Source: Myxococcota bacterium (lineage in GTDB: Bacteria > Myxococcota > XYA12-FULL-58-9 > JALHOP01). Taken from it: 24,285 nucleotides of DNA. The DNA is taken from the NCBI GenBank assembly GCA_041288095.1, contig JBGGMJ010000114.1, positions 1-24,285 on the forward strand, written 5' to 3'. The notes below the pieces were generated by a model. It had not been told where the DNA came from. It saw nothing but the letters and a program-made list of their open reading frames with translations, and ran no database searches. This document shows, one piece after another, positions 297 to 24,285 of the stretch (positions are counted from its first letter, which is position 1; every line of letters begins with the position of its first letter). The translations under genes and the position numbers were made by a program.

Positions 297-300
297 CTCG

Positions 301-1605: not shown

Positions 1606-1683
1606 TTGGGCGCACGCGGGGACCTGTCAGGTCGGCAGGCTCCAAACCCGGAACGCTGGGGGTGGGCTGCCGAGCATGAAGGC

Positions 1684-4756: not shown

Positions 4757-4826
4757 GGGGCTATACGGTACAGAGAACCGACTCTTGCCGCCAATCTATG
4801 ATGATCGATAGACTAGGTTTAACGCC
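4757..4826. promoter_or_regulatory. Divergent overlapping promoter region between pilT operon and fur
   Basis: Plus strand: TTGCCG(4785-4790)-N18-TAGACT(4809-4814). Minus strand: TTGGCG(4794-4789)-N18-TACCGT(4770-4765). Inverted repeat TCTAT-N8-ATAGA at 4795-4812. Confidence 0.45.
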
Positions 4827-5273: not shown

Positions 5274-5833
5274 TGTTCGAGCTCATCGACCGGTGGGACC
5301 ACGAGGCCATGGATTGGCTCGCGGCGAATGTCCACACCATCGTGCTCGACTTGCCGATGCGCATCTTCTCGAGCTTCTGGGCGTTCAGCTGGCTCATTCT
5401 CGGGATCGCGGTGTGGTTGGTCTGGCGAGGCGGCGATCGGGGTCGGATCCTCGTGATCACCGCGCTGTTGTTGGTGCTGCTGACCGACCAGCTGGCCGCG
5501 AGCATCATCAAGCCGCTGGTTGCGAGGCCGCGGCCGTACGGCGGCGGCGGCTCGTTTTCCTTCCCCTCGGTGCACGCCACCAACATCGCGGCGCAGGCGA
5601 CGCTTTTCGCGCGCTTCTATCCGAAGATCACCGCGGCCTTCGGGCTGATCGCGGTGCTCGTCGGCTTTTCACGCGTTTATCTCGAGAAACACTACCCGAG
5701 CGACGTCATCGGCGGAGCGCTCCTCGGAATAGTGCTTGGTGGGTGCGCTTCTTGGGCCGCTTTACGCTGGGGCAACCGCGCCATGGCGTGGACAAAGAGC
5801 AAGTGGATGAAAAGTCACAGGTCCGCTCCTTGA
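5273..5833 (+). CDS. PAP2 family membrane phosphatase (undecaprenyl-PP/lipid phosphatase-like)
   Basis: C1 KPLVARPRP, C2 SFPSVH and C3 SRVYLEKHYPSDV, with several TM helices. GTG start overlaps the fur stop (TAGTG). Confidence 0.9.
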   Translation: MFELIDRWDHEAMDWLAANVHTIVLDLPMRIFSSFWAFSWLILGIAVWLVWRGGDRGRILVITALLLVLLTDQLAASIIKPLVARPRPYGGGGSFSFPSVHATNIAAQATLFARFYPKITAAFGLIAVLVGFSRVYLEKHYPSDVIGGALLGIVLGGCASWAALRWGNRAMAWTKSKWMKSHRSAP

Positions 5834-5869
5834 TTCGCGCGCCCGTGTCGGCCAAAAGTCCTCGCATCC

Positions 5870-7309: not shown

Positions 7310-7318
7310 GCGCCGCAA

Positions 7319-7954
7319 ATGCGCTGGCTCGTTCTCGCCGTCATCGCCAGTGGCGCGTGCGCAACGCCGCGCACGCACCGCACCGGGCAGCCACTGGTGC
7401 TCGCCGCCGATCCCGCGCGCGGGCCTTGTGAAGAAGCGGCGTGGGTAGCGCTCGCGCCAACTCACGTCGGTGCCGAGGCTCAGGAGACGGTCGCGGCCAC
7501 GCAGAGCTGGATCATGTACAGCACGCACAACGAGTCTGCGGATGGTCTCGCCGCCTACCAGAAGGGCCTCGAGCTGCGGCTCACCAGCGAGCAGACCGCG
7601 CGCCTCATTGGCAACACGATGTTGCGGCCCGACATCGACGCTGACGTGAGAGCCATTCACAAGAAGAAGTCGACCGCGACCGGCTTCCTCGTCGGCGGGC
7701 TCGTCGCCACCGTCATCGGTGGCGGCATTGCTTTGGCGGATCTCGAGAACCCGACCGTGGGCCTGTCGATCATGGGCGTGGGCCTGGTGGCTGAGCTCGT
7801 CGCTTTGATGATTCGCCCTCATAACGCGGACGTCGCGTGGGCGGAGGTTCGCGACCGCATCTTCCTGGAAGGCGAAACCGACATTCCCGCGCTCGTCACC
7901 GGCGTCGATGCCGCCAACCAACGCACACGGGCATCCTGCGACGAGCAACCCTGA
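7319..7954 (+). CDS. Hypothetical lipoprotein with C-terminal TM hairpin
   Basis: MRWLVLAVIASGAC lipobox-like signal and two Gly-rich hydrophobic helices near the C-terminus. Starts 9 nt after pyk. Confidence 0.65.
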   Translation: MRWLVLAVIASGACATPRTHRTGQPLVLAADPARGPCEEAAWVALAPTHVGAEAQETVAATQSWIMYSTHNESADGLAAYQKGLELRLTSEQTARLIGNTMLRPDIDADVRAIHKKKSTATGFLVGGLVATVIGGGIALADLENPTVGLSIMGVGLVAELVALMIRPHNADVAWAEVRDRIFLEGETDIPALVTGVDAANQRTRASCDEQP

Positions 7955-8035
7955 TCGCCAACGCGGACGCCAGCGCGTCGATTGACGCCCTTCGTCGCCG
8001 GGGCTATCGAGCCGGCGGCCGACCGCGGCTACAGC

Positions 8036-9361
8036 ATGCTCAGCCTTCTCGTTGCGACGATGCTCGCCCAACCAGCAAATCCAGGCCTACTGGACGCGGC
8101 GCGCGCCGCGCTGCGGCATCCGAAGGTGCGCTCGTGTGTAGCAGACCGGCAGGTCATCGAAGCCCGGCATGACGAGGCGCGGGCCGGGCAGCTCCCATCG
8201 CTATCGCTCGCGGCACAACTGAATCGCGGCACCGGCAACGTGGTACCCGGATCGTCGTTCGCAACACCTGGAACCCCGGTCAGCGCTGGGCCGCCGCGTG
8301 GCGCGAGCTTCGACAGCGGCACGTGGACGACCATCGCCAGCTTGGGGGTGAGCTTCGAGGTCGCAAACTTCGTGCGGCGCATGCGCGAGGTCGATGCCCA
8401 GCTCGCCCGAGTAGAGAGCGCGCGGGAACGTGAAGCGGTTTGTGCGCTCGATGCCGCCTACGAAGCGGGATCGGCGTTTCTCGATGTCGCGGCGCTCACC
8501 GCCGCGCTAAAGGCCGTCGATGCCGACCGCGGTCGTGCCGAAGCTCTGCGATCGCGGACGGCGGCGCTCGCCAAGGCAGCGCTGCGACCCGGCGCGGAGC
8601 TGGCGCAGGCCGACGCCGAGCTCGCCGGAGTCGAGGCGCGAGCCGCGACGTTGCGACGCGATCTGCGCCTGGCGCAAGCTCGCCTCGCCGAAGCCATGGG
8701 TATCGAAGAGCTCCCGGTGATGACGCTCGAGTTGCCAGCGGTGACGGCCAGTGAGCGCGAAGTGGCCGCGCATCCGCGCATGCGCGGTGCGGCCCGCGAC
8801 GTCGACGCATCGGAGCGCTTCGTCGCCGTGGCGCGCACCGGCTACCTGCCGCGGCTCGAGGTCGCGGCGGCGCTCTGGGCTCGCGGCAGCGGCTACCCGG
8901 GCGCGGCCGGTGAACAGCTCGGCCGGAGCGGCAATGGCCTCACGCCCGATGTCGCCAATTGGCTCGCTGGCGTCGTCGTCAGCTGGGACATCTTCGATCT
9001 TCCCGAGACGCGCGCTCGCGTCGCCGGCGCCGAGGCTGAAGCGGCGGGCAGACACGCAGCGTACGACGCGACCCGGCTTAGCCTGGTCAACCAACTCGAG
9101 GGCGCACGCGCCAGCGTCGTCGAAGCTCAGGCGGTACTGCGGCACACGGCGCCGGCCGTCGAAGCATCGCGCCTGGCTCTTGCGCAAGCAGAGGCACGCT
9201 ACGCCAGCGGCCTCTCTGATTTCCTCGACGTCGCTCGCGTGCGACAGCTGCTGACCGACGCCGAGCTCGCGCACATCGCGGCCGAAGTCGGGTTGGCCCG
9301 CGCGACCATCACTTTGGCGCGAGCCATGGGTGACGTCGGCGCCCTCACGGAGCCGCGCTAA
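8036..9361 (+). CDS. TolC-family outer membrane efflux protein
   Basis: Two OEP halves (AGQLPSLSL / TGYLPRLEV) and AEARYASGLSDFLDV. ATG at 8036 gives a signal peptide. TAATG overlap with the RND gene. Confidence 0.85.
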   Translation: MLSLLVATMLAQPANPGLLDAARAALRHPKVRSCVADRQVIEARHDEARAGQLPSLSLAAQLNRGTGNVVPGSSFATPGTPVSAGPPRGASFDSGTWTTIASLGVSFEVANFVRRMREVDAQLARVESAREREAVCALDAAYEAGSAFLDVAALTAALKAVDADRGRAEALRSRTAALAKAALRPGAELAQADAELAGVEARAATLRRDLRLAQARLAEAMGIEELPVMTLELPAVTASEREVAAHPRMRGAARDVDASERFVAVARTGYLPRLEVAAALWARGSGYPGAAGEQLGRSGNGLTPDVANWLAGVVVSWDIFDLPETRARVAGAEAEAAGRHAAYDATRLSLVNQLEGARASVVEAQAVLRHTAPAVEASRLALAQAEARYASGLSDFLDVARVRQLLTDAELAHIAAEVGLARATITLARAMGDVGALTEPR

Positions 9362-12300
9362 TGCCCATCGTGCTCGCTGCGTTGCGCCGGCCGTACACCG
9401 TCGTGGTCGTGGCGCTCGCCATCACTGTCGCGGCAGCCTTCTCGATCGCCCGCGCACCGGTCGACATATTTCCGTCGCTCGGCGTGCCCGTCATTTACAT
9501 CGTCCAGCCGTACGCCGGGATGACGCCGACGCAGATGGAGAGTCAGCTCGTCAATTACTACGAGTATCATTTTCTCTACGTCGCTGGCGTCGAGCACGTC
9601 GAGTCGCAGTCGATCCAAGGGATGGGGCTCATCAAGCTCTACTTCCACCCCGGCACGGACATCGCGCAGGCAATGGCCCAGACGACGGCGATGGCGTTCC
9701 GTTCGATCGCGTTCATGCCGGCCGGCACGCTACCGCCGTTCATGGTGCGCTTCGACGCCGGCTCGATCCCGGTTGGCCAGCTGGTCTTCAGCAGCGGCAC
9801 ACGCGGTGAGGCGGCGGTCCAGGACACCGCGCTCAACACCGTGCGTCCCATGCTAGCTACCCTGCCGGGCGTCTCGGCCCCACCACCCTCCGGCGGCAAA
9901 GTGCGCACCATCGTCGGCTACTTGGATCCCGAGCGTATGCGGGCCCACGGCCTGTCGCCGGATGACGTGGCGCGTGCCATTGCCCGCGCCAACGTGGTGC
10001 TGCCGGCGGGAAATCTCCGCGTCGGCGACACCACGATGATCGCCGAGACCAACGCCCTCGTCGCCCGTCCGCAAGATCTCGAGAACGTCTCGATACGCGA
10101 GCACGCCGGCACGCACGTTTACCTGCGGGACCTCGGCCGCATCGCCGACGATGCGGACATCGTCTACAATGTCGCCCTCGTGAACGGTCGCCGCACCGTC
10201 TACATGCCCGTGACCAAGCGTGCTGACGCGTCGACGCTCGACGTCGTGCGCGCGGTCAAAAACGCGTTGCCGCGCATGCGGGCCGCTATGCCGGACGACG
10301 TCGCTCTGAGCTTCGAGTTCGATCAGTCGCGCTACGTGACCCGGTCCGTGGTTGGCCTCGTCGAGGAGGGCGCACTGGGCGCACTGCTCACTGGCCTCGT
10401 GGTGCTACTTTTCCTGCGCTCCTGGCGGTCGGCGCTCATCGTCATGCTGACGATCCCGTTGTCTGTTTTAGCAGGCATCATCGGCTTGCGTCTCGCCGGC
10501 CAGACGTTGAACGTCATGACGCTCAGCGGCTTGGCCATGGCCATCGGGATCCTGGTGGACGAGGCCACGGTGGCCATCGAGAACATTCACACCCATCTCG
10601 CGACTGACGCTTCTCCGAGCCGGGCGGTGGTCGACGCGATGCGCGAGGTAACCTTGCCGCGCGTGCTGGCGCTCCTGTGTATCCTCTCGGTGTTCCTACC
10701 ATCGTTCTTCATGGTCGGGGTGAGCGCCTCGCTCTTCCCGCCGCTGGCGCTCGCTGTCGGGTTCACGATGATCGCCTCGTATGTCATCTCGACAGCGCTC
10801 GTCCCAGTGCTGTCCGTGTGGTGGCTACGTCGCGAGAAGCATCACGGCAGTGGCCAACCGCTCATCGCCGTGCGGTACGAGCGGCTGGTCACTGACATCT
10901 TGCGGCGGCCGTGGCTTGCGCTCGTGGTCTACGCCGCGCTCCTCGTTCCAGGTGCGCTGCTCGCCACACGCATCGGCACGGAGCTATTTCCACGTGTCGA
11001 CGCTGGCGAGATGCAACTGCGCATTCGCGCGCCCGCAGGCACTGGCCTCGAGCGCACGACGGAGCTGGTACGCGCCATCGAGCGCATCGTCCGCGAGGAA
11101 GCGGGCGAAGGGCATGTCGCTATCACGCTCGCCAACATCGGTAACCCCGCGTGGACGTTTCCGGTCAACGCCGTCTACGTCTTCAACGCCGGTCCACATG
11201 AAGCCACACTCATGGTGGCGCTCCAGGGCTCCGGCCGACCGTCCGTGCGCGACCTCGAGGGTCGCTTGCGCGCACGCTTCCACAGCGAGCTCCCCGAAAT
11301 GCGCGTGTCATTCGAGCCGGGCGATATCGTCTCGCGCGTGATGAGCTTTGGCGCCAGCGCTCCGGTGCATGTGAGCATCACCGGCAAGAGCCTGCAGGCG
11401 ATTCGCAAACACGCCGAGACTATTCGCGACGCTCTGGCCGTTCGCACCGAGCTCAGCGACGTGCAGATCCCCATGGCGCTCGATTATCCCACGATGCACG
11501 TGGAGATCGACCGCGAGCGGGCGGCCCTTCTCGGCCTAGACGCGCAGAGCATCGGCCGGTCCCTGGTCACCGCGACCTCATCCACGATCCTGACGACCCC
11601 GCTCTTTTGGACCGACCCCGCGAGTGGCAATCCCTACCGGGTGGCCCTGCGTGTGCCCGAGCGCGAGATGCGCGGCGCGGATGACGTCGCGACAACGCCC
11701 GTCGGCGACGTCGACGGATCGGTGGTGACGCTGGGCCAGGTGGCGGCCGTGTATCCGACGACGACGCCTGGGGAAGTCGACCGCTATAACAATCAACGAA
11801 CCGTCGTGGTAACGGCCAATGTCGCTGAAGCGGACTTGGGCACCGCGACACGCGTTGTTGCTGATACGCTCGTGGGTCTCCCACCACCCAAGGGGATCGC
11901 GGTGGCGGTCCATGGCCAAGCCGAGCAACTGCAAACCACGATGGCGAGCCTGCGCACCGGTTTGTTGCTCACGGTGATCATCGTGCTGCTCCTCTTGGTC
12001 GCTGCCTTCCAATCGATTCGTGACGCAGCTGCCGTCCTGGTGACGACACCGGCGGTGTTCGTCGGTGTGGCGCTGGCGCTGTTTCTGACCGGTGGCACCT
12101 GGAACGTGCAGTCGTTGATCGGGACGATCATGGCGATCGGCGTCTCGATGGCGAACGCGGTGCTGCTCGTGACCTTCGCGCGGGATCGCCTCGTTGCCGG
12201 CGACCAGCGGCTGAGCGCCGCGGCTTCGGCGGCCGTGGCGCGGCTACGGCCGATCGTCATGACGAGCATCGCCATGGTGGCAGGCATGCTGCCAATCGCG

Positions 12301-12465
12301 CTCGCTATTGGCGAGGGGGGCGAGCAAACCTCACCGCTGGGTCGCGCCGTCATCGGTGGGCTCCTCGCCTCGACCGTGGCAACGTTGTTCGTCTTGCCCG
12401 CTGCGTACGCGCAGTTCGCCCAACGGCGCTACCGTGACCCCTCTCTCTTGGAGACGACCTCGTGA
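9361..12465 (+). CDS. RND efflux transporter permease subunit (AcrB/AcrD/AcrF family)
   Basis: 1034 aa. ALRRPYTV, PVDIFP, TLNVMTLSGLAMAIGILVDEATVAIENI, RLRPIVMTSIAMVAGMLP and PLGRAVIGGLL motifs. Confidence 0.95.
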   Translation: MPIVLAALRRPYTVVVVALAITVAAAFSIARAPVDIFPSLGVPVIYIVQPYAGMTPTQMESQLVNYYEYHFLYVAGVEHVESQSIQGMGLIKLYFHPGTDIAQAMAQTTAMAFRSIAFMPAGTLPPFMVRFDAGSIPVGQLVFSSGTRGEAAVQDTALNTVRPMLATLPGVSAPPPSGGKVRTIVGYLDPERMRAHGLSPDDVARAIARANVVLPAGNLRVGDTTMIAETNALVARPQDLENVSIREHAGTHVYLRDLGRIADDADIVYNVALVNGRRTVYMPVTKRADASTLDVVRAVKNALPRMRAAMPDDVALSFEFDQSRYVTRSVVGLVEEGALGALLTGLVVLLFLRSWRSALIVMLTIPLSVLAGIIGLRLAGQTLNVMTLSGLAMAIGILVDEATVAIENIHTHLATDASPSRAVVDAMREVTLPRVLALLCILSVFLPSFFMVGVSASLFPPLALAVGFTMIASYVISTALVPVLSVWWLRREKHHGSGQPLIAVRYERLVTDILRRPWLALVVYAALLVPGALLATRIGTELFPRVDAGEMQLRIRAPAGTGLERTTELVRAIERIVREEAGEGHVAITLANIGNPAWTFPVNAVYVFNAGPHEATLMVALQGSGRPSVRDLEGRLRARFHSELPEMRVSFEPGDIVSRVMSFGASAPVHVSITGKSLQAIRKHAETIRDALAVRTELSDVQIPMALDYPTMHVEIDRERAALLGLDAQSIGRSLVTATSSTILTTPLFWTDPASGNPYRVALRVPEREMRGADDVATTPVGDVDGSVVTLGQVAAVYPTTTPGEVDRYNNQRTVVVTANVAEADLGTATRVVADTLVGLPPPKGIAVAVHGQAEQLQTTMASLRTGLLLTVIIVLLLLVAAFQSIRDAAAVLVTTPAVFVGVALALFLTGGTWNVQSLIGTIMAIGVSMANAVLLVTFARDRLVAGDQRLSAAASAAVARLRPIVMTSIAMVAGMLPIALAIGEGGEQTSPLGRAVIGGLLASTVATLFVLPAAYAQFAQRRYRDPSLLETTS

Positions 12466-13487
12466 TGCGGCGTGCTGCGCTCTTTGCGCTCCTGATCCAC
12501 GGCTGCCAGGCCCAGAGCGACGCGCCTCCGCCCCCCGAGGCGCGATCGACACCGGTGATCGAGACGTTCTCTCTCGCGGTCGCGAGCGTCGAAATGACGG
12601 TATCGCTGCCCGGCGAGCTCTCGCCTTACGAAGCCGTCGACATCCGCGCGCGGGTATCGGGTTTGATCTCGGCATTGTCCGTCGATCGCGGCTCGAAGGT
12701 GCGCAAGGACGACGTCCTGCTGCGGTTGCGCGCTCCCGAGCTCTCCGCCCAGCGCGCCGAGGCGCAAGCGCGCTCGCGCACCCAGGAAAGCACGCTGAAG
12801 CGCCTGGAAGAGGCGGCCCAAACGCCCGGCGCCGTCGCCACCAACGAGGTCGACATCGCTCGGACGACCCTCGAGGCCGAGCGAGCGCGCACCGCGTCTC
12901 TGGAGGCTCTCGAGAGCTACACGAGCATCCGGGCGCCGTTTGCCGGCATCGTCACCAAGCGCTACGTGCACCCGGGTGCGCTCGTTTCACCGACTGACCG
13001 CGACCCGCTGCTACGTCTCGAAGACGTGTCCCGCCTGCGTCTCACGGTCGCGGTGCCGGAGCATGCGAGCGGCTCCCTGACTCTCGGCGAAAGCGTCCCC
13101 TTCACGGTCGCGGCATACCCGGGCGAACGCTTCATGGGTGTGATCCAACGATCGGCGGGCTCGATCGACACGACTACCCGTACCCTGCCGGTCGAGCTCG
13201 ATGTCGCGAACGCCGACAATCGTCTGGCGCCCGGCAGCTATGCACAGGTGGCTTGGCCCGTTCGTCACGAACGAACGTTCATGGTTCCACGGACGGCGCT
13301 CGTTCAAACCGCGACGCGCCTGTTCGTGATCTGCGTCCGCGAAGGCAAAGCAGCGCGAGTCGAGGTCCGTCGTGGTCTCACACGAGGCGACGATGTCGAG
13401 ATCTTCGGCGAGGTGCGCGAGGGCGACCGTCTCATCAAGCGCGCCTCGGAGGACATCGCTGAAGGGGCGACTGTGAACGCGACCTGA
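12465..13487 (+). CDS. RND efflux periplasmic adaptor (membrane fusion lipoprotein)
   Basis: Lipobox LLIHGC, IRARVSG..VDRGSKV, IRAPFAGIV, IDTTTRTL and LAPGSYA. TGATG overlap with the RND stop. Confidence 0.92.
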   Translation: MRRAALFALLIHGCQAQSDAPPPPEARSTPVIETFSLAVASVEMTVSLPGELSPYEAVDIRARVSGLISALSVDRGSKVRKDDVLLRLRAPELSAQRAEAQARSRTQESTLKRLEEAAQTPGAVATNEVDIARTTLEAERARTASLEALESYTSIRAPFAGIVTKRYVHPGALVSPTDRDPLLRLEDVSRLRLTVAVPEHASGSLTLGESVPFTVAAYPGERFMGVIQRSAGSIDTTTRTLPVELDVANADNRLAPGSYAQVAWPVRHERTFMVPRTALVQTATRLFVICVREGKAARVEVRRGLTRGDDVEIFGEVREGDRLIKRASEDIAEGATVNAT

Positions 13488-13545
13488 CGGGACGGCGTCC
13501 ACGCATTATGAGCCGGACACCTCCATGGGATAGAGTCCCGGCCGA

Positions 13546-16254
13546 ATGGTGACCTTCTTCCTGGTCGTGCTGGGCGGGTTGATGGGGGCGGCGGCCGATG
13601 AAGCCAACGGGGCGTTCATCGGGATGATCATCGGCTATCTGGCCGCGCGGCTGATCGTCGATCATCAGCGACGCAAAAAGCTGGATGAGCGGCTGAAGGC
13701 GCTGGAGCTGCAGGTGGCGCTGCTGCAAGGCGGGTCACGCGTGAGCGCGGCGCAGGCACCCATCGTGACACCGGTGCCGGTGACGCCCGCGGCGATTCGC
13801 GCGGCGAGCGAAGATGATTTGCCGGCGTCGGAGAGGAAGACGGTCGAGCTGGGGGCTCCCGAGCACTTGGTGGCCGAGAGCCGATCACCGACTGCCGAGA
13901 GCCGAGAGCCGGTAGCGCCGTTGTTTCCGGCGGCGCCTTCGGGCCCCGATCCCATCGAGCGTCTGCGCGCGCTCATCTTCGGCGGCAACACGGTCGTCCG
14001 CGTCGGCGTCATCATCCTGCTCTTCGGCGTCGGCTTCCTCGTCAAATACGGCGCCGAGCACGGCATGTTTCCGATCGAGCTGCGCCTCATCGGCGCCGTC
14101 ATCCTCGGCATGGGCTTGCTGATCGTCGGCTTCCGCCTGCGCAACAAGCGCCTCGCCTACGCCGTGAGCCTGCAAGGTGGCGGCATCGGCACCATTTACT
14201 TGGTCACCTTCGCGGCGCTGAAGATTTACGAGCTCATCCCGCACGGCGCGGCGCTCGCGGTCTTCGTGGTGCTCGCGGTCGCGACGGCCTTCCTCGCCAT
14301 CGTGCAGGATGCTCTGGCGCTCGCGGTGCTCGGCGTCCTCGGCGGCTTCCTCGCGCCCATCCTGGCGTCGAACAACAGCGGCAACTTCGTCGCGCTCTTC
14401 ACCTACTACGCCATTCTCAACGCGGCGATCCTCGTCATCTCCTGGTTCAAGGACTGGCGCGTCCTGAACCTCTTGGGCTTCACCTGCACCTTCCTCGTCG
14501 GCACGGCGTGGGGCCTTTCGGCCTACCAGCCCGAGAACTACGCCTGGACCCAGTTCTTCCTGGCGCTGTTCTTCGTGTTCTACGCGACCATCGCGGTCTT
14601 CTACGCGGTGAAGCGGCCGGCGAAGAGCCGCGGCATCATCGACGGGACACTGGTGTTCGGACTGCCCGCTATAGCGTTCGCGCTGCAAGTGGGATTGGTG
14701 AAGGACACGCCCTGGGGACTCGCCGTCTCGGCCGTCGTCGTCGCCGGCTTCTACATCGGCGTGGCGTCGATCGTCTGGAAGAAGTCGCCGGAGCACGGCC
14801 GCTCGCTCGCCGAGGCCTTCACCGCGCTCGGTGTCGTGTTCGTCACCATGGCGATCCCCTTCGCGCTCAACGCGAGCTGGACCGCCGCTGCCTACGCGCT
14901 CGAGGGTGCCGGCCTCGTCTGGGTGGGTCGTCGCCAGAAGAAGCCGCTCGCCGAAGCCGCGGGCGTCCTCTTGCAGTTCGCCGCCGGCGTCACCTTCGAT
15001 TCGCCTGGCTCGGCCGAGCTCAGCCAACCGGTCATCGATGCGATCTATCCGTATGCGTTCCTACGCGCCGTTGGTGCCCTCGCGTCGGCCTACTTCCTGC
15101 GCACGCGCGTCTCGGCGATCTCGTCGGTAGCGCAGGGACTCTTGGTCGTGTGGGCCATCGCTTGGCTCACCGGCGGCACCATCTACGACATCTTCGATCA
15201 CGACGAGAACAAGCACTTCGCCGTCATCACCCTGGGCGCGATCACGGTCCACGCCCTCCTCCTCGACCTGATCGGCAAGCGCCTCGCGTGGACGGCCGGT
15301 CGCCTCGGGGCCCTGTTGCTCGGGGCCCAGCTCGCGGTCGGCGTCGTCATCTGGGCCATCCTCGAGCTCGGCTTCGAAGAGCAGCAAGATTGGTCGTGGG
15401 CCGGCTGGCTGTTCGCTTTAGCGGTCTGGATGTTGCTGCTGAAACGTCAGGATAAAGAGACCTACCCGAAGACCTTGGCGGTCGCATACGGCGTGACGCC
15501 GCTCCTCGTCTCGACGGCACTCGCGGGCATTGCCTATCTGCACATCGACCGACACGTCCCCGAGGGTGTCTGGTCCGCCGTCGCGGCCGCGCTCATCCCC
15601 GCGTTCGTGTTGTTCGCGTTCCTGGCCGCCGACTTGCGCGATCGCTGGCCCATGGTCACGCACCGCGCCGCCGTCATCAACGGCTTCGTGCCCGTCGTCG
15701 TATACCTGCTCTTCTGGAGTCTCGGCGGCAGCTTCGGCAGCGACGGTGATCCATCGCCGCTCCCTTACGTGCCACTGCTCACGCCGCTCGATCTCACGCA
15801 GGCGTTCATCATTCTGGCGGGCGTCGCCTGGGCCCTGCGCGTCCGTGTCCGCTATCCCGAACGCTTCGAGGCGTTGCGCGTGCCGTTCATCGCGGTGCTC
15901 TGTTTCGTGCTCTTCGCGCACCTCTCCGCGGTCTGCGTGCGCAGCTGCCACTACTACGCCGGCGTGCCCTGGGATTGGGACGACCTCATGGACTCGACGG
16001 TGGTGCAGACCTCGTTGTCGATCGCCTGGACGGTCATCGCCCTCGTGGTGACGGCGCTCGCTTCGCGCAAGAAGTGGCGGGTCGTGTGGATGGTCGGTGG
16101 TGCCTTGCTCGGCGTCGTCGTGCTCAAGCTCTTCATCGTCGACCTGTCACACATCCAGACGGTAGCTCGCATCATCTCGTTCCTGGTCGTTGGTCTCTTG
16201 CTCTTGCTCATCGGCTGGATCTCGCCGGTGCCGCCACGCTTGGCGCGCGCCTGA
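13546..16254 (+). CDS. DUF2339 domain multi-pass membrane protein
   Basis: GGNTVVRVGVIILLFGVGFLVKY, PIELRL, LQGGGIG, LGGFLAPIL, DGTLVFGLP and the C-terminal KLFIVDLS..RIISFLVVG..IGWISPVPP. Confidence 0.9.
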   Translation: MVTFFLVVLGGLMGAAADEANGAFIGMIIGYLAARLIVDHQRRKKLDERLKALELQVALLQGGSRVSAAQAPIVTPVPVTPAAIRAASEDDLPASERKTVELGAPEHLVAESRSPTAESREPVAPLFPAAPSGPDPIERLRALIFGGNTVVRVGVIILLFGVGFLVKYGAEHGMFPIELRLIGAVILGMGLLIVGFRLRNKRLAYAVSLQGGGIGTIYLVTFAALKIYELIPHGAALAVFVVLAVATAFLAIVQDALALAVLGVLGGFLAPILASNNSGNFVALFTYYAILNAAILVISWFKDWRVLNLLGFTCTFLVGTAWGLSAYQPENYAWTQFFLALFFVFYATIAVFYAVKRPAKSRGIIDGTLVFGLPAIAFALQVGLVKDTPWGLAVSAVVVAGFYIGVASIVWKKSPEHGRSLAEAFTALGVVFVTMAIPFALNASWTAAAYALEGAGLVWVGRRQKKPLAEAAGVLLQFAAGVTFDSPGSAELSQPVIDAIYPYAFLRAVGALASAYFLRTRVSAISSVAQGLLVVWAIAWLTGGTIYDIFDHDENKHFAVITLGAITVHALLLDLIGKRLAWTAGRLGALLLGAQLAVGVVIWAILELGFEEQQDWSWAGWLFALAVWMLLLKRQDKETYPKTLAVAYGVTPLLVSTALAGIAYLHIDRHVPEGVWSAVAAALIPAFVLFAFLAADLRDRWPMVTHRAAVINGFVPVVVYLLFWSLGGSFGSDGDPSPLPYVPLLTPLDLTQAFIILAGVAWALRVRVRYPERFEALRVPFIAVLCFVLFAHLSAVCVRSCHYYAGVPWDWDDLMDSTVVQTSLSIAWTVIALVVTALASRKKWRVVWMVGGALLGVVVLKLFIVDLSHIQTVARIISFLVVGLLLLLIGWISPVPPRLARA
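13873..13914 (+). repeat. Degenerate tandem heptamer array, 6 x 7 bp (consensus GCCGAGA), inside the DUF2339 linker
   Basis: GCCGAGA GCCGATC ACCGACT GCCGAGA GCCGAGA GCCGGTA. The 42 bp length keeps the frame (AESRSPTAESREPV). Confidence 0.75.
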
Positions 16255-17648: not shown

Positions 17649-19031
17649 ATGTTTCTAGTTAGGCGCGCTGGCGCGACCCCCCTTTTGGTCGCGGCGGTGT
17701 TCGTATCGACCGCGCTCGCCTGGGTCGTGCCGGTGCTCTGGCCCACGGGCACGACGGCGACGCCGCTCTACGCCATCCGGTCCGCTGCGGCGTGCAACAC
17801 CTGCCACATCGAGCCCGCCGGTTGGTACAACCCGCCCGACGACGCCGGCCGCAAGTGCACCCTCGACTGCACCGGCTGTCACATCAGCAAGACCGGCGGC
17901 GGTCTGCGCACCGCGACCGGCGACTTCTACGGCTACGAGAGCCTCGCGATGTTCGGCTCGCACCCCGGCGACGGCGTCGACCCGAGCAAATATCGGGACC
18001 CCGACGACAGCTACAGCACCAAGGGTCGTTATCGTTTCTGGGAAGGCTTCTCCGGCTGGCAGGCCGGCAAGACGCCGATGGTCAAAGTGAAGGATCGCTT
18101 CGGTCCCATCGAGCCCGACCCCAAGCTCAAGTGGGGCGCCGACGTGCGCATCTTCGGCTACCTGCCGCTCGGCAGCGAAGAGTCGCCGAAGGTCTTCCCG
18201 ATGCAGGCCGAAGTTTACGGCTTCGCCAAACCGGCGAAGAACATCTCAATCTACGGCACCGTCGGCCTGCAGGGCGATCGCCGCGACCTCATCCAGAAAG
18301 GCGAGTGGCACGATCGCTTCGCCATTCGCGAGCTCTGGATTCAAGCCGACAATTTCAAGAACAACGGGTACGTCCGCGCCGGCAGATTCACCAAGCCCTT
18401 CGGATGGCGTCACCCCAACCACACCCTCTTCACGCGCGCGGGCCTCGACTACGATCAATACGCGCAAGTCTTCGGCGCCGAGATCGGAGTGGCGCCGAAT
18501 TACCCGTACGCCAATCTCGCGGTCTTCTATCAAGGCATCGAGAAGTGGCCGGGTGAGCAACAAGACACCGGCTACGGCGCGGCGCTCACGGCGGGCGTTC
18601 GCGATCTAGGCTGGCAGCTCGGCGGCAGCGCCGAGATCTTGAAAATCACCGAAGCCGGCACGACGAACATCGGCGCGGGCACGCAGGTCACGGCCGGTCC
18701 ATTGTGGGCCCTGAATCTCTATCCGTTCACGATCCTCGGTGAAGCCGATTTCCGCGCCTACAACCCCGTCGAGCGCGCCGACACGGCGTACCAACTCTTC
18801 ATCTTCCACGAGCTCGACTACATGCCGACGCGCGGCATCAACATTTTCGGCACCTACGAGTGGCAAGACGTGAACCTCGTGAACCGCGAGGATCACCGCC
18901 AGCGCTTCTCGGTCGGCGCCGACTGGAACATCTACAAAGGCTGGCAGGTCACCGCGCAGTACCGCCGCCTCTACCAAGCGACGACGTTCCTCTCGAACGA
19001 TCTGCTCCTGATGCTGCACTTCTGGATCTGA
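17649..19031 (+). CDS. Putative cytochrome c-porin fusion (Cyc2-like) with two CxxCH motifs
   Basis: N-terminal hydrophobic signal, ATPLYAIRSAAACNTCH (CNTCH at 17793-17807) and CTGCH (17868-17882) followed by TGGGLR. The rest is amphipathic beta-strands (YVRAGRFTKPFG) ending LLLMLHFWI. Confidence 0.7.
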   Translation: MFLVRRAGATPLLVAAVFVSTALAWVVPVLWPTGTTATPLYAIRSAAACNTCHIEPAGWYNPPDDAGRKCTLDCTGCHISKTGGGLRTATGDFYGYESLAMFGSHPGDGVDPSKYRDPDDSYSTKGRYRFWEGFSGWQAGKTPMVKVKDRFGPIEPDPKLKWGADVRIFGYLPLGSEESPKVFPMQAEVYGFAKPAKNISIYGTVGLQGDRRDLIQKGEWHDRFAIRELWIQADNFKNNGYVRAGRFTKPFGWRHPNHTLFTRAGLDYDQYAQVFGAEIGVAPNYPYANLAVFYQGIEKWPGEQQDTGYGAALTAGVRDLGWQLGGSAEILKITEAGTTNIGAGTQVTAGPLWALNLYPFTILGEADFRAYNPVERADTAYQLFIFHELDYMPTRGINIFGTYEWQDVNLVNREDHRQRFSVGADWNIYKGWQVTAQYRRLYQATTFLSNDLLLMLHFWI

Positions 19032-21123: not shown

Positions 21124-21468
21124 CTACTCGCTCGTGTCCGCCGGGGGCGCGCCGATCTCGACCCACTTGAGGAAGGCCGCGCGGTCGATCGGCGACATCG
21201 GTGGGTCGGTGAGCGGCGGCATGATGCCCGCGTCGACGAGGTCGCGCGCATCGATGCGGCGCTCGTAGAGCGTCTCGTAGGTGTCGCCGTCGAACTCGCC
21301 CTGCGGGTTCGAGCTGTTGTGGCAGCGCAGGCAGTAGTTGGCGGTGACCTGCGCAATCTCACGGTAGGTCGGCCGCTCGGGCACCTCTTGGAGCACACTC
21401 GTGTTCTCGCTGCCGAAACCGGGGCAGGCGGTGAGAGCCAGAAGGACGAGAGGAAGAAGCCGGCGCAT
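21124..21468 (-). CDS. Monoheme c-type cytochrome lipoprotein (planctomycete cytochrome C-like domain)
   Basis: MRRLLPLVLLALTAC lipobox, CLRCH heme site, distal MPP and WVEIGAP. Alternative start at 21483. Confidence 0.8.
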   Translation of the reverse strand: MRRLLPLVLLALTACPGFGSENTSVLQEVPERPTYREIAQVTANYCLRCHNSSNPQGEFDGDTYETLYERRIDARDLVDAGIMPPLTDPPMSPIDRAAFLKWVEIGAPPADTSE

Positions 21469-21494
21469 ACGAATGCGTGGCATATAGCACCACC

Positions 21495-22898
21495 CTAGCG
21501 GACGCGCAGCTCCCAAACGATGTTGCTGGTCACGACCGACGCTTCCGCCGGGTTCGGCTTGTAGACGTTCATCACGAAGTGGCGCACCGCGTCCTCGACC
21601 TGCGGCACGAAGGGCACCAGCTCGATGCTCAACACCTTACGGCGCCGATCGACGTGCAGCAGCAAGTGACCCTCTTCGGTCGTGCCGTGGACGAGACTCC
21701 AGTCGCGCTCGCCCGGGTGCACGACGCGATGGGTGAGCGTGAGGTCCGCGGCCTTTTCGACGACGTCGACCAGCAGGTCGAGGAAATACGGCATGGCGAA
21801 GCGCAGCTCGCCGATGTCCTCGAAGGTGCCGATGAAGCTCGGGCGACGCTGGGCGAAGTCTTCGCGATAGAGATTGAGCGGCACGGAGAACGCGTCCGCT
21901 AAAACGGTCGGCTTCGTGCTCTCGGTGAGCGACAGCTCGACCCAGTCGCTCTCGTACCAGTGGAGCTTCGCGGCGTGCGTGTAGTAGCGGTTGTGGCGCG
22001 CGTGCCAGGCGTCGATGCGCAGGCCGAGCTCGCTTGCGACCTTCTTGAAGAGCTTGGTGGTCGGAGGGAAGACCGCCGAGAGCAAGCGGCCACCCGGCTT
22101 GCACAGCGCGATGGCGCGCGACAGGAACAGCTCGAAGCACTCGCGATTCGCCATCGGGTCGGTGAGGACGACGTCGTAGAGCCCGAGCAGCTCGGGCGGC
22201 ATCGGGTCACGCAGGTCGACCTCGCGCGTCTCGATGGAGACACCCTGCTCGCGCGCCGCATCGCCCAAGAAGCGCAGCAGGAAGTCGTCGATGTCGAAGA
22301 CGCTCACCTCGTGGCCGAGCATGGCGAGTGGCATGGCGACCAGATCGTCGTCGCCCAAGCACAAGACCTTCTTCTTGCCGACCACCGTGGCGTCGCCGAC
22401 GGTCAGGGCAAGGCGCACCGCGGTCTCGGGGAGCACTGGGCACTGGCCGATCTGCTCGAAGAAGCGCTTGCGACGGGCATGCGCGCGCAAGGTCGCTTCG
22501 TGCGCCGCTTTGACGCGTGGCGACCAACCGACCGACAGCTCACGGCCGACCACCGCGTCGAGGCCGCCGATGACACCCGCTAACACGGAGTCCGACTTGG
22601 GCGGGCCCTCGGCGAGGAAGCCCGCGGCAACGAGCTTCGGCGCCAGCTGCTCGACGCCCTTCATGTCCCAGCCGAGGGCGAGCTGCTCCAACGCGTTCAC
22701 GTAACGAAAGTCGACGGTCAGCTCGTCGTCACCGTTGAGATCGACGAGGCGCGAGTTGGTGGGGCCGATCGACAGGATGATGCCGTCGGCCAAATGATAG
22801 AGCTGCGTCGCGCCTTCGGGCGGTGTCCGCGCCGGCGGAATACGCGGTAATTTGTCGAGCTGCAGGGACTCGAGGACGGCGAGGCGTGACGTATTCAT
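21495..22898 (-). CDS. BpsA-like (branched-chain polyamine synthase / bis-aminopropyl spermidine synthase family) aminopropyltransferase fused to a C-terminal degenerate AdoMetDC-fold domain
   Basis: Q..VLPETAVR, VLCLGDDDL (GDDD at 22344-22355), VFDIDD, VDLRDPMP, YDVVLTDP and LFLSRAIALCKPGG match the BpsA_C/DUF43 pattern. The C-terminal ~115 aa align without gaps to the neighbouring SpeD. Confidence 0.82.
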   Translation of the reverse strand: MNTSRLAVLESLQLDKLPRIPPARTPPEGATQLYHLADGIILSIGPTNSRLVDLNGDDELTVDFRYVNALEQLALGWDMKGVEQLAPKLVAAGFLAEGPPKSDSVLAGVIGGLDAVVGRELSVGWSPRVKAAHEATLRAHARRKRFFEQIGQCPVLPETAVRLALTVGDATVVGKKKVLCLGDDDLVAMPLAMLGHEVSVFDIDDFLLRFLGDAAREQGVSIETREVDLRDPMPPELLGLYDVVLTDPMANRECFELFLSRAIALCKPGGRLLSAVFPPTTKLFKKVASELGLRIDAWHARHNRYYTHAAKLHWYESDWVELSLTESTKPTVLADAFSVPLNLYREDFAQRRPSFIGTFEDIGELRFAMPYFLDLLVDVVEKAADLTLTHRVVHPGERDWSLVHGTTEEGHLLLHVDRRRKVLSIELVPFVPQVEDAVRHFVMNVYKPNPAEASVVTSNIVWELRVR

Positions 22899-23887
22899 GC
22901 GAACACCGTCCGCTCAGGCGTGCGCTCGGTGCGCCGTGGCCGCACCCGCGTGTCTTCGTCGGCGAAGAGCGTGAACGCCGCGGTCATGGTGGCGTGATCG
23001 AGCGCGTCGTCGTAGGGCACGAAGCTCACCAGCAAGTGGCCGAGCTCGGGATTGAGCTCGGCGACGAAGCCTCGACCCTCGTCGTCGTACCAACAGAGGA
23101 TGTGCTTGTCTTCGTAGGTCTTGAGATCGGAGAGCTCGGGCTTGCGGCCGGAGATCTCCGCGACCTTGGCGCCGAAGGTCTCGAGGGTCGCGCCGCGCGC
23201 GAGATCGAGACCATCCATGTCGAACCAAGCGTAGGGCGGTGCATCGACGCTCACTGGCAAGAGCTGTGACAGCTCACCGCTGCGCGGAGCCGGCAGCTCG
23301 GGCACGCTGGTCGCGATGGCGCCGGACAAGAGCACGAGGTCTCCGGCGCCGTCGGCAACGTGGCCACCCGCGAACAGCGTGTGATCCACTTCTCGTTGAT
23401 AGCCGATCACCTTCACGCCCATGACGCGCACGTGCTCGTAGAAGCCGCGGTCGAACGGCCAGCGCAGGCGAGCGATGACGGTGCCGGAAGGACCGACTGA
23501 CGCTAAAGCGGACTCAAGCCGAGCAGCGGTCAACGCGAGGTCCGATGCTTCGAACACCGAGACGTCGGCGACCACTTCTTTCACGGGCGGCGCATCGGCG
23601 CGCACCACTTTGACGGACACGTTCGCGAGCTGGCCCGCCAAGCCGTCGACGTCACCGAAGAGCACGACGCGCTTGGGATGCAGTCCCTCAATGGCAACCG
23701 CGCGCCGCACCACCGACGACGGCAAGGTGGCCCGTTCGCCCAGCACCAACGGAATTCCTTCGCGAGCCCGCGCTTCACGCACCCGCGCCACGCGCTCGCC
23801 GTGTGCTTGCATGAAGCCGGGGAGCGAGCCGCTGTACATGCTGTCGAGCGCGGCGAGTCGTCTCGCGAGGGTGTCTACGTCGTGCAT
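22895..23887 (-). CDS. Degenerate paralog of the BpsA-AdoMetDC fusion (probable pseudoenzyme)
   Basis: GERATLPSSVVRRA..KRVVLFGDVDGL parallels GQCPVLPETAVRLA..KKVLCLGDDDLV. The C-terminal NPELGHLLVSFVPY parallels WPENGVMFIDI and KVLSIELVPF. ATGA overlap with the downstream gene. Start could be TTG at 23926. Confidence 0.7.
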   Translation of the reverse strand: MHDVDTLARRLAALDSMYSGSLPGFMQAHGERVARVREARAREGIPLVLGERATLPSSVVRRAVAIEGLHPKRVVLFGDVDGLAGQLANVSVKVVRADAPPVKEVVADVSVFEASDLALTAARLESALASVGPSGTVIARLRWPFDRGFYEHVRVMGVKVIGYQREVDHTLFAGGHVADGAGDLVLLSGAIATSVPELPAPRSGELSQLLPVSVDAPPYAWFDMDGLDLARGATLETFGAKVAEISGRKPELSDLKTYEDKHILCWYDDEGRGFVAELNPELGHLLVSFVPYDDALDHATMTAAFTLFADEDTRVRPRRTERTPERTVFA

Positions 23888-23893
23888 CTTGAG

Positions 23894-23922
23894 GTCGTAG
23901 AAAGCAGGAAACGCGCGGGCAA
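23894..23922 (-). promoter_or_regulatory. Candidate internal leaderless promoter TTGCCC-N17-TACGAC, 6 nt before ATG 23887
   Basis: Exact 17-nt spacing and no Shine-Dalgarno before the ATG. The -10 lacks its final T. Confidence 0.3.
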
Positions 23923-23938
23923 ACAATTAGGCGCTGGT

Positions 23939-24285
23939 TCAGCCGACGCGCGTGCGCAGATTCTGATCGCGGCACTCGTACGCCAGGTTGTCGCGCTTGA
24001 TGGCCGCATGCGGGACGTTGCGGCAGATGCTCTCGAAGGCGGCGCGGGCCGCGACCTCGCCGGAGCACGAAGCGATGTCGATGAACATGACGCCGTTCTC
24101 GGGCCAGGTGTGAATGGCGATGTGCGACTCGGAGAGGATGACGGCGCCGGTGAGGCCCTGCGGATCGAAGACGTGCAGGTAGCGGTGCAGCTCGGTGAAG
24201 TTCCCGGCTGACACGGCGTCGGTGAGCACACGGTGCATGTGCGCCGGATCGTTCAAGTGCTCGAACGAACAGCCTTCGAGCGTGG
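23939..24285 (-). CDS. speD: S-adenosylmethionine decarboxylase proenzyme (class 1b), 5'-truncated by window
   Basis: HVFDPQGLTGAVILSESHIAIHTWPENG..DIASC, with an intact E-S self-cleavage site and catalytic Cys. The frame stays open to the window edge (TLEGCSFEHLND). Confidence 0.93.
   Translation of the reverse strand, partial: TLEGCSFEHLNDPAHMHRVLTDAVSAGNFTELHRYLHVFDPQGLTGAVILSESHIAIHTWPENGVMFIDIASCSGEVAARAAFESICRNVPHAAIKRDNLAYECRDQNLRTRVG

Follow-up and report, generated by a model that had tools for sequence, protein, structure and literature searches.

A Predicted AdoMetDC-Fold Domain Lacking Catalytic Residues in a Bacterial BpsA-Family Aminopropyltransferase-Like Protein and in Its Degenerate Paralog

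Introduction

The question raised by this locus is what a domain that resembles S-adenosylmethionine decarboxylase (AdoMetDC) and has lost its catalytic residues may be doing at the C-terminus of a BpsA-type aminopropyltransferase encoded in one unit with a genuine AdoMetDC. The locus lies in a stretch of 24,285 nt from a Myxococcota bacterium (contig JBGGMJ010000114.1, assembly GCA_041288095.1), hereafter called the window. A minus-strand unit in the window has the gene order speD, ORF2, ORF1, i.e., AdoMetDC, a degenerate BpsA paralog, and the BpsA-type transferase. It had been proposed in a preliminary description of this DNA that the last part of ORF1 is a dead AdoMetDC that acts as a bacterial prozyme-like or docking module. 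Here we examined this proposal by sequence and profile comparison, structure prediction, and complex modelling.

Results

Gene Organization and Linkage

The first gene of the unit, speD (23939..24283, minus strand), encodes a class-1 S-adenosylmethionine decarboxylase proenzyme, of which 114 of 122 aa are present before the window ends. It is followed by ORF2 (22895..23926, minus strand; a degenerate paralog of the BpsA-like enzyme, 343 aa counted from a TTG codon) and by ORF1 (21495..22898, minus strand; a BpsA-family aminopropyltransferase-like protein of 467 aa). The relatives of ORF2 begin at Met14 (23887) and not at the TTG. The ORF2 stop codon and the ORF1 start codon, as read from the sequence, overlap in an ATGA at 22895..22898 (minus strand), which is the usual arrangement for translational coupling.

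Linkage was counted over five loci, the window plus L001, L002, L003, and L004. ORF2 is found directly upstream of ORF1 in 5/5 loci, including L004 at 46%/30% identity, and speD is directly upstream of the ORF2-ORF1 pair in 4/5 loci. The exception is L004, where SpeD was not found in the 10.3 kb of a contig that carries ORF2-ORF1 and begins 1.7 kb upstream. Furthermore, ORF2 and ORF1 are fused in two predicted proteins, P0159 (840 aa) and P0054 (781 aa), with the gene order kept and with unrelated linkers; SpeD is part of neither. Each fusion is a single predicted protein and may be a read-through or frameshift artefact at the 4-nt overlap. Thirteen ORF2-type sequences were found vs. about 59 ORF1-type matches, in a search that requires shared 5-residue words.

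A small ORF downstream of ORF1 (21124..21516, minus strand; 130 aa) has a CxxCH motif and a signal-peptide-like start, and overlaps the end of ORF1 by 22 nt, provided that its TTG start is real. Its cytochrome c matches are weak only (Pfam Cytochrome_CBB3, 0.0073, below cutoff). The window and L001 have it immediately after ORF1; in L002 and L003 it lies 1.4-1.7 kb away, and L004 lacks it. Its membership in the speD-ORF2-ORF1 unit is doubtful.

SpeD Is a Genuine AdoMetDC

The window SpeD matches Pfam AdoMet_dc at 1.6e-25 and NCBIfam TIGR03330 with 86 bits (cutoff 75.65), and its ESH processing site and Cys are intact. The complete 122-aa form is encoded at L001:4604-4972. SpeD has every column that is invariant among 53 relatives, and the pyruvoyl Ser itself is invariant in 53/53 of them. 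Since SpeD keeps all the invariant residues, its sequence does not suggest that it depends on an activating partner.

The Catalytic Part of ORF1 Is BpsA-Like

Residues 142-267 of ORF1 match Pfam BpsA_C (PF01861) at 7.4e-23 (81.5 bits; the cutoff is 27). When the ORF1 family profile (59 close matches) was compared with the PDB, N4-bis(aminopropyl)spermidine synthase 5xnc was matched at 3e-23, and the full-length profile found BpsA and methyltransferases only (10 sequences at E<=10). The GDDD motif at ORF1 residues 182-185 (22344..22355, minus strand) aligns with the GDDD of solved BpsA, where this motif is essential (PMC12979288), and is invariant in 54/54 ORF1-family sequences. The relatives of ORF1 come from metagenome-assembled genomes labelled Myxococcota, Bdellovibrionales, or Deltaproteobacteria.

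Fold and Sequence Likeness of the ORF1 C-Terminal Domain

From model and alignment together, the AdoMetDC-fold domain of ORF1 was placed at residues 352-467 (about 116 aa; 21498..21845, minus strand). AlphaFold2 modelled residues 340-467 with a pLDDT of 93.7 and a pTM of 0.84, and the pLDDT was 96-98 up to the last block, i.e., the C-terminus is predicted to be folded. The preliminary description had made its reading depend on a structural match to AdoMetDC, and such a match was obtained: the five best PDB matches of the model in Foldseek are all class-1 AdoMetDC (2iii, 1vr7_A, 1tlu_A, 1vr7_B, and 1tmi_A), with E from 3.7e-4 to 3.7e-3, TM 0.58-0.66, and rmsd 2.2-2.6 A over 90-92 columns. Human spermine synthase (3c6k) is in the same list at rank 16 (E 0.041). 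The fold evidence is strong that the ORF1 C-terminal domain is, as modelled, an AdoMetDC half-sandwich.

Direct sequence comparison gave a less uniform result. The coordinates and the ungapped 73-residue alignment to SpeD, with 13 identities counted by hand in the preliminary description, were reproduced exactly on realignment (ORF1 residues 358-430 vs. window SpeD residues 1-73). This alignment has a BLOSUM62 score of 28 and is the best 73-residue diagonal of all ORF1 vs. SpeD; none of 300 shuffled ORF1 sequences reached that score (maximum 25). Two-sequence BLASTP of ORF1 vs. SpeD gave E 0.004 with 21/91 identities. The profile-profile comparison that had been suggested as a check returned the same register at E 0.0023 over 86 columns, a value reached by 0/40 column-shuffled SpeD profiles (best 0.033), but the hhalign probability was just 12.7% and the reversed SpeD profile scored 0.0077. 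BLASTP of the ORF1 domain vs. the 53 SpeD relatives gave a best E of 1.3, no better than the N-terminal-half controls (0.5-0.9), and the ORF2 domain likewise stayed at noise level. Neither AdoMet_dc (Pfam) nor TIGR03330 (NCBIfam) matched ORF1 or ORF2 at E<=1, phmmer searches of PDB sequences with the ORF1 and ORF2 domains singly did not find AdoMetDC, and an ESM Atlas search with the ORF1 domain gave no usable match. Judged from sequence alone, the likeness of the ORF1 domain to AdoMetDC is marginal.

Loss of the Catalytic Residues in ORF1

In the alignment, the ESH of SpeD faces EEGH at ORF1 residues 408-411 (21666..21677, minus strand). The hhalign register agrees in setting Gly410 (21669..21671, minus strand) opposite the pyruvoyl-forming Ser of ESH and Phe430 (21609..21611, minus strand) opposite the catalytic Cys. 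Both substitutions had been described before. The pyruvoyl-Ser column in 54 ORF1-family sequences is G in 51, C in 2, and S in 1, and the catalytic-Cys column has C in 0/54 and F in 37/54. Pro429, just before Phe430, is invariant (54/54), and 42/54 sequences retain His415, the residue that faces the second His in the motif of SpeD. With the processing Ser and the catalytic Cys missing, the ORF1 domain cannot become a pyruvoyl enzyme, as had been claimed, and is not a decarboxylase.

ORF2 Is a Degenerate Paralog With the Same Kind of Domain

No family match was found for ORF2 in Pfam or NCBIfam. When its N-terminal 227 aa were compared with the ORF1 family by hhalign (ORF2 family, 10 matches), the probability was 95%, with E 3.7e-8 over 163 columns. 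In this register the site of GDDD is occupied by GDVDG (23642..23656, minus strand), in which Val replaces the second Asp (Asp159 of Tk-BpsA). The Asp159 equivalent is present in 0/13 ORF2-type sequences (8 V, 1 T, 1 A, 1 P, and 2 with the region deleted), and ORF2 is probably a pseudoenzyme to judge from these substitutions.

AlphaFold2 and Foldseek placed a second AdoMetDC-fold domain at ORF2 residues ~231-343 (22898..23236, minus strand), modelled with a pLDDT of 88.9 and the topology b-a-b-b-b-b-a-b-b. On top of its Foldseek list are 2iii (1.2e-4), 1vr7, 1tmi, and 1tlu, with TM 0.61-0.65; human spermine synthase 3c6k holds ranks 5-9 (E 1.2e-3) and the prozyme 5tvm_E rank 33 (E 0.026). The beta3-beta4 turn reads DDEGRG (23069..23086, minus strand) and has no conserved Ser. 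The hhalign comparisons established no sequence link for this domain, with E 0.35 vs. the SpeD family and E 0.028, in the wrong register, vs. the ORF1 domain. Leads from ESM Atlas for the ORF2 domain were methyltransferase-like and low-scoring (TM 0.33-0.41 by query) and were rejected. The preliminary description had missed that ORF2 is a BpsA paralog in a degenerate state, that the dead domain recurs in it, and that it adjoins ORF1 in all five loci and is joined to ORF1 in two predicted fusion proteins.

Complex Model of the Two Dead Domains

The sole pairing modelled was that of the ORF1 dead domain with the ORF2 dead domain, together with three controls. The complex scored 0.62 vs. 0.02 for the best control and passed a mark that is reached by 116/157 solved complexes and 2/215 mismatched pairs. 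Three runs share at least 50% of contacts, with a partner pLDDT of 75-79. The modelled contacts fall on alternate strand residues, which indicates sheet-face packing in the model, and sheet-face packing is the dimerisation mode of the bacterial half-enzymes (PMC5201418). This pass indicates likeness and not binding, and it may stem from dimers already known to the predictor, namely the solved homodimers of AdoMetDC and the dimer of spermine synthase. As a single pairing was modelled, the heteromer is not discriminated from homodimers or from pairings with SpeD.

The predicted interface of ORF1 is not more conserved than the remaining domain (mean entropy 2.23 vs. 2.05, permutation p 0.82), and most of the near-invariant residues of the ORF1 domain (D378, R391, R418, R439, K447, and R465) are outside the listed interface. 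The modelled inter-sheet face is lined by Trp400 (51/54), Gly410 (51/54), His415 (42/54), and Asp417 (47/54).

Discussion

Possible Roles of the Dead Domains

We give about an even chance to the reading that the two dead domains form a hetero-oligomerisation module that ties ORF1 to ORF2. Bacterial AdoMetDC is built of two half-sandwiches packed sheet against sheet, and the dead halves of ORF1 and ORF2 would stack likewise, as they do in the model, and would hold the two proteins in a heteromer. ORF2 would then be a non-catalytic partner of ORF1, with a scaffolding or regulatory role, and the oligomerisation module would be a reused form of the enzyme that acts in the preceding pathway step, a situation with a parallel in human spermine synthase. 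The adjacency of ORF2 and ORF1 where SpeD was not seen, in the 46%-identical L004, and the two fusions suggest that the dead domains pair with each other first. A wider version of this reading would extend the prozyme principle to bacteria and to the next step of the pathway. An active BpsA-type transferase would be obligatorily paired with its dead paralog, the two dead half-sandwiches would rebuild a pseudo-AdoMetDC, and its relic cleft would either retain binding of an adenosyl ligand or recruit SpeD, which would couple the supply of the labile aminopropyl donor to its use. This wider version is unlikely.

ORF1 and ORF2 could also each self-pair through the dead domain, in the manner of human spermine synthase, with a separate role for ORF2. 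Precedents are that enzyme (PMC13700777), whose structure is among the Foldseek matches, and the homodimers formed by bacterial AdoMetDC half-sandwiches (PMC5201418). However, self-pairing leaves unexplained why a degenerate paralog stands beside ORF1 in 5/5 loci and has been fused to it twice, and we regard it as unlikely. Another reading is the docking of the dead domain on SpeD in place of one protomer, resulting either in prozyme-like activation or in channelling of decarboxylated AdoMet (dcAdoMet) to the transferase. The speD gene directly upstream in 4/5 loci is in line with such docking, as are the conservation of His415 in 42/54 sequences and the shared fold, which would in principle allow a half-sandwich to pack against a protomer of SpeD. 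The same linkage may extend to relatives down to 54% identity, as is suggested by equal-sized contigs (P0005/P0085, 10788; P0002/P0079/P0145, 5785). On the other hand, SpeD was not seen in the 10.3 kb of L004, whose contig begins 1.7 kb upstream, is in neither fusion, and, with all its invariant residues, looks self-sufficient; the prozyme mechanism itself rests on a eukaryote-specific edge-to-edge dimer and an autoinhibitory N-terminus (PMC5201418). Docking on SpeD is doubtful.

Two further explanations concern the domain itself. There is a slim chance that the relic cleft is a ligand sensor, which would bind AdoMet, dcAdoMet, or methylthioadenosine and exert allosteric control over the transferase; this would be compatible with any of the oligomer models. 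Trp400, Gly410, His415, and Asp417 lie on the modelled inter-sheet face, in the place of the AdoMetDC active site, but conservation of the face as a whole does not exceed that of the other parts of the domain, and the ORF2 domain has no recognisable sequence in common with the ORF1 domain (hhalign E 0.028, mis-registered). Convergence or chance, i.e., a generic alpha/beta sandwich not derived from AdoMetDC, would account for the weak sequence statistics (hhalign probability and reversed control, noise-level BLASTP, and no Pfam match) and for the unrelated RnlA and CENP-N among the lower-ranked Foldseek matches. We consider it highly improbable: the two domains, modelled independently, found the same AdoMetDC entries first, with TM around 0.6 vs. 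0.4-0.45 for unrelated folds; the sequence register sets Gly exactly at the processing Ser, with the next His kept; the context is a polyamine operon with a genuine AdoMetDC adjoining; and spermine synthase is a documented case of such recruitment (PMC13700777).

Implications

Aminopropyltransferases would have recruited a dead AdoMetDC domain independently on two or more occasions, once in the spermine synthase of animals and once in a BpsA lineage of bacteria; the catalytic scaffolds are unrelated, and the domain is N-terminal in the former and C-terminal in the latter. The locus offers a compact bacterial system of an enzyme and its dead paralog in polyamine synthesis, a pathway whose best-studied pseudoenzyme regulators are trypanosomatid (PMC5201418). 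For annotation, about 59 proteins carry no label beyond 'bis-aminopropyl spermidine synthase family' or 'hypothetical', and their C-terminal domain is unannotated; the partner ORF2 belongs to no annotated family. No earlier description of the architecture of BpsA plus dead AdoMetDC was found in the literature searched, the coverage of which excludes most subscription journals, and its absence is not proven.

Comparison With Known Systems

Solved BpsA (Tk-BpsA 5xnc and Tt-BpsA 6j27) shares PF01861 and GDDD with ORF1; enzymes of the BpsA family produce branched polyamines aminopropylated at N4. The solved chains have 371-375 aa, and their match to ORF1 ends near residue 310. The C-terminus of BpsA is a short flexible acidic region, which has been described as the aminopropyl carrier (PMC12979288); ORF1 is predicted to have, instead of this acidic tail, a folded AdoMetDC-like domain of about 116 aa. 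The hosts of ORF1, unlike those of solved BpsA, are not thermophiles.

The class-1 bacterial AdoMetDC of T. maritima (1tlu/1vr7) and A. aeolicus (2iii) has fold and topology in common with the dead domains as modelled, and has the beta3-turn-beta4 motif in the same sequence register as the ORF1 domain. Unlike class-1 SpeD, the dead domains lack the pyruvoyl Ser and the catalytic Cys, have no Pfam or NCBIfam match, and are not free-standing. Eukaryotic AdoMetDC has two non-identical halves joined in a single alpha-beta-beta-alpha sandwich (PMC5201418). As modelled, ORF1 and ORF2 would together give a hetero counterpart of it in which both halves are dead. The eukaryotic halves are in one active chain, whereas here they are in two proteins (one chain in P0159 and P0054), and none can be processed.

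The trypanosomatid prozyme has both halves of the full eukaryotic AdoMetDC. It forms an edge-to-edge dimer with the active enzyme, relieves its autoinhibition, and is reported from trypanosomatids only (PMC5201418). Like the dead domains modelled here, the prozyme (5tvm) is a catalytically dead AdoMetDC relative that lacks the processing residues; in the polyamine pathway it works through oligomerisation (PMC5201418), as the dead domains may do. It is a free-standing two-half protein, in contrast to the single half-sandwich of about 116 aa fused to another enzyme here. The prozyme trait of an unprocessed dead AdoMetDC paralog is therefore found in a broad sense only, as a domain and not as a free paralog. 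Of the prozyme-like module proposed in the preliminary description, the fold (Foldseek TM 0.58-0.66) and the catalytic loss stand, but the prozyme, with its two halves and edge-to-edge contact, is a poor structural model.

By analogy, the closest precedent appears to be the N-terminal domain of human spermine synthase, which is closer than the prozyme: this domain is AdoMetDC-like, non-catalytic, and required for dimer formation (PMC13700777). In human spermine synthase (3c6k/3c6m), as in ORF1 according to its model, a non-catalytic AdoMetDC-like domain is fused to a dcAdoMet-dependent aminopropyltransferase. The animal enzyme carries this domain N-terminally on a SpeE-type catalytic domain and is the homodimer of one gene product, whereas the bacterial domains described here are C-terminal, belong to BpsA-type proteins (PF01861), and occur both in ORF1 and in its degenerate paralog ORF2, which were modelled as a pair.

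ORF1 Is a BpsA-Type Enzyme With a Degenerate AdoMetDC Domain

ORF1 (21495-22898, minus strand) encodes a BpsA-like protein of 467 aa, and the region singled out in the preliminary description lies at its 3' end. The Pfam BpsA_C match (7.4e-23) is restricted to residues 142-267. The profile of 54 ORF1 family members matched solved N4-bis(aminopropyl)spermidine synthases in the PDB (5xnc, 3e-23), with the 5xnc match stopping near residue 310 of the ~371-aa solved chains, and GDDD is present in 54 out of 54 members. This alignment excludes the short or fragmentary proteins P0007, P0045, P0055, P0058, and P0059, the fusion P0054, and 16 canonical BpsA-like matches that cover the catalytic core only. 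The 403-aa protein P0163 has a recognizable C-terminal dead domain (phmmer E 9.8e-4), with no GDDD string visible in its sequence, and may represent a third, degenerate architecture.

The C-terminal region had been described as looking like a catalytically dead AdoMetDC from an alignment with the neighboring SpeD, with identities counted by hand. A script reproduced this alignment exactly (73 ungapped residues, 13 identities), with EEGH at 21666-21677, Gly410 facing the processing Ser, and Phe430 facing the catalytic Cys. The diagonal is the best of all between ORF1 and SpeD, its score was attained by none of 300 ORF1 shuffles, and two-sequence BLASTP gave an E value of 0.004. When the profiles of the ORF1 domain family and the SpeD family were compared, this register was recovered across 86 columns, though weakly (E 0.0023, probability 12.7%); this E value was attained by 0/40 column-shuffled SpeD profiles, while a reversed SpeD profile attained 0.0077. 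BLASTP of the domain against 53 SpeD relatives stayed at noise level, no better than N-terminal-half controls, and AdoMetDC was not found for ORF1 by Pfam, by phmmer against PDB sequences, or by the full-length family profile against the PDB. Given these mixed searches and controls, the likeness to AdoMetDC by sequence alone is marginal.

Structure comparison of a predicted model settles the fold as AdoMetDC. Residues 340-467, modeled with AlphaFold2 from an alignment of 52 relatives (mean pLDDT 93.7, pTM 0.84), show the topology strand - helix - four strands - helix - two strands. In Foldseek against the PDB, ranks 1-5 are all class-1 AdoMetDC chains (A. aeolicus 2iii; T. maritima 1vr7_A, 1tlu_A, 1vr7_B, and 1tmi_A) with E 3.7e-4 to 3.7e-3, TM 0.58-0.66, and rmsd 2.2-2.6 A; unrelated proteins below them have TM 0.45 or lower, and rank 16 belongs to human spermine synthase 3c6k. 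Among the 54 family members, the Gly410 column, equivalent to the processing Ser of SpeD, contains Gly in 51, Cys in 2, and Ser in 1; the Phe430 column, equivalent to the catalytic Cys, contains no Cys and Phe in 37; His415, equivalent to the second His of the SpeD motif, is His in 42. From the fold and the Gly410 and Phe430 counts we concluded that the domain is a degenerate AdoMetDC half-sandwich in which the pyruvoyl group cannot form. The single Ser in the Gly410 column is in P0039 and the Cys residues are in P0010 and P0011, preceded by Lys, Glu, and Asp, respectively.

ORF2 Is a Degenerate Paralog Carrying Its Own Dead Domain

ORF2 (22895-23926, minus strand; 343 aa) lies directly upstream of ORF1 and matched no family in Pfam or NCBIfam. 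By hhalign its N-terminal 227 aa are related to the ORF1 family's catalytic part (95%, E 3.7e-8, 163 columns), with GDVD at the place of GDDD. The middle Asp is found in 0/13 ORF2-type sequences, a count that excludes the fragment P0144 (Val in 8, Thr, Ala, and Pro in 1 each, region deleted in 2). In Tk-BpsA the GDDD motif is indispensable, and Asp159 and Asp160 position the donor, as stated in a 2026 review (PMC12979288). This paralogy and the lost Asp make ORF2 a probable pseudoenzyme.

According to hhalign, the C-terminal ~113 aa of ORF2 resemble neither SpeD nor the ORF1 domain in sequence. The AlphaFold2 model of this stretch (pLDDT 88.9) has the same topology as the ORF1 domain, and Foldseek places 2iii, 1vr7, 1tmi, and 1tlu on top (E 1.2e-4 to 2.7e-4, TM 0.61-0.65), followed by human spermine synthase 3c6k (1.2e-3) and then human AdoMetDC; 5tvm_E, a chain of the T. 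brucei AdoMetDC/prozyme entry, is at rank 33. Since topology and ranking match those of ORF1, the models indicate that a dead AdoMetDC-fold domain is common to both paralogs.

Gene Linkage, Fusions, and Neighboring Genes

The stop of ORF2 and the start of ORF1 overlap in ATGA, and ORF2 immediately precedes ORF1 both in the window and in each of the four related loci (tblastn map). In the most distant locus, L004, the pair is still adjacent at 46% (ORF1) and 30% (ORF2) identity to the window, and its ORF2 protein matches the ORF2 family at 99.9% in hhalign. Among 1.84 billion representatives searched with phmmer, only 23 proteins matched the ORF1 domain (E<=0.001): 14 have 372-467 aa and are matched at or close to the C-terminus, seven are shorter (87-269 aa) and possibly fragments, and two are long. 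In the latter, P0159 (840 aa) and P0054 (781 aa), an ORF2-type protein, complete with its own dead domain, runs on into an ORF1-type protein through linkers that differ between the two. Gene fusions are classic evidence for two proteins working as one unit; these predicted fusions may be artefacts at the 4-nt overlap. In the ORF1 half of P0159, GDGD replaces the otherwise invariant GDDD; provided that this fusion is real, the lineage may have an altered or inactive transferase.

The speD gene (23939-24283, minus strand; truncated by the window end) is immediately upstream of ORF2-ORF1 in the window and in L001, L002, and L003. It was not seen in the 10.3 kb of L004, where an amine oxidase gene and then the contig start lie upstream; this flavin amine oxidase (L004 3-1385, plus strand; Pfam Amino_oxidase 1.4e-13), in speD's place, could be a polyamine oxidase connected with the same pathway. 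SpeD matches Pfam AdoMet_dc (1.6e-25) and NCBIfam TIGR03330 above cutoff. The full-length protein (122 aa), taken from L001 (97% identical), agrees with 53 relatives at all of their invariant columns, the E-S-H processing site and the Cys among them. A Gly-x-His near the N-terminus, the majority in the 53-sequence alignment, is missing from this clade's SpeD (L001 4604-4972; window 23939-24283), and its N-terminal strand also differs in reading from the majority.

A 130-aa ORF (21124-21516, minus strand) overlaps the ORF1 3' end and contains a CxxCH motif (CLRCH); cytochrome c matches in Pfam were sub-threshold only. Its N-terminus is signal- or lipoprotein-like, with a putative lipobox. In the window and L001 this ORF comes directly downstream of ORF1; in L002 and L003 it lies 1.4-1.7 kb further away, and L004 lacks it. 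A 460-aa ORF (17649-19031, plus strand), with no Pfam match and two CxxCH near its N-terminus (CNTCH, CTGCH), may encode a novel multihaem or outer-membrane protein. Housekeeping and envelope genes, all unrelated, make up the remainder (262-16254); they encode a DUF4215 protein, two T2SSE-type ATPases, pyruvate kinase, an RND efflux set (OEP, AcrB-type, HlyD-type), and a DUF2339/DUF3999 pair.

Modeled Pairing of the Two Dead Domains

Complex modeling covered one pair, the ORF1 and ORF2 dead domains, which scored 0.62 (runs 0.58, 0.66, and 0.62; best of three controls 0.02). That mark is attained by 116 out of 157 solved complexes and 2 out of 215 mismatched pairs; these counts apply approximately, as own alignments were used. 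The runs share at least 50% of contacts, with partner pLDDT of 75-79. Contacts, including ORF1 Trp400, Gly410, His415, and Asp417 and ORF2 Tyr232, Trp234, Tyr280, and Glu290, fall on alternate residues in all strands, so the two sheets face each other in the model. Two bacterial AdoMetDC half-enzymes make a sandwich of the alpha-beta-beta-alpha type by such facing of sheets, according to a figure legend (PMC5201418, Figure 7). Since AdoMetDC-type dimers are already solved, the passing score may reflect the model's familiarity with that family, and it shows likeness, not binding. In ORF1, conservation of the listed interface residues does not exceed that of the remaining domain (entropy 2.23 vs. 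2.05, p 0.82), and most of the domain's nearly invariant charged residues lie outside the listed interface; both count against a conserved ORF1/ORF2 interface.

Discussion

Both domains have the AdoMetDC fold with catalytic residues lost, ORF2 is degenerate, and the pair is linked and, in two predicted proteins, fused. We propose that the dead domains would serve as an oligomerization module joining ORF1 to ORF2. A prozyme-like action on SpeD, suggested in the preliminary description by analogy with trypanosomatids, is possible, but SpeD looks self-sufficient, L004 shows no speD in its 10.3 kb, and SpeD is part of neither P0159 nor P0054; the prozyme mechanism also depends on eukaryote-specific features (PMC5201418). 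The dead domains could also form homodimers, or keep a relic cleft with a putative ligand-sensing role, and either could coexist with an ORF1/ORF2 heteromer.

Among known cases, human spermine synthase comes closest: its N-terminal domain (residues 1-117) is described as AdoMetDC-like, without a direct catalytic part, and critical both to stability and to formation of the dimer (PMC13700777, PMC11203672). No account of a dead AdoMetDC domain on a BpsA-type enzyme was found in the literature searched, with partial coverage. Animals are already known to have an aminopropyltransferase that bears a dead AdoMetDC domain, whereas here the host protein is a bacterial BpsA-type enzyme, the domain is at the C-terminus, it is found in two paralogs, one a probable pseudoenzyme, and the modeled pairing is between different chains.
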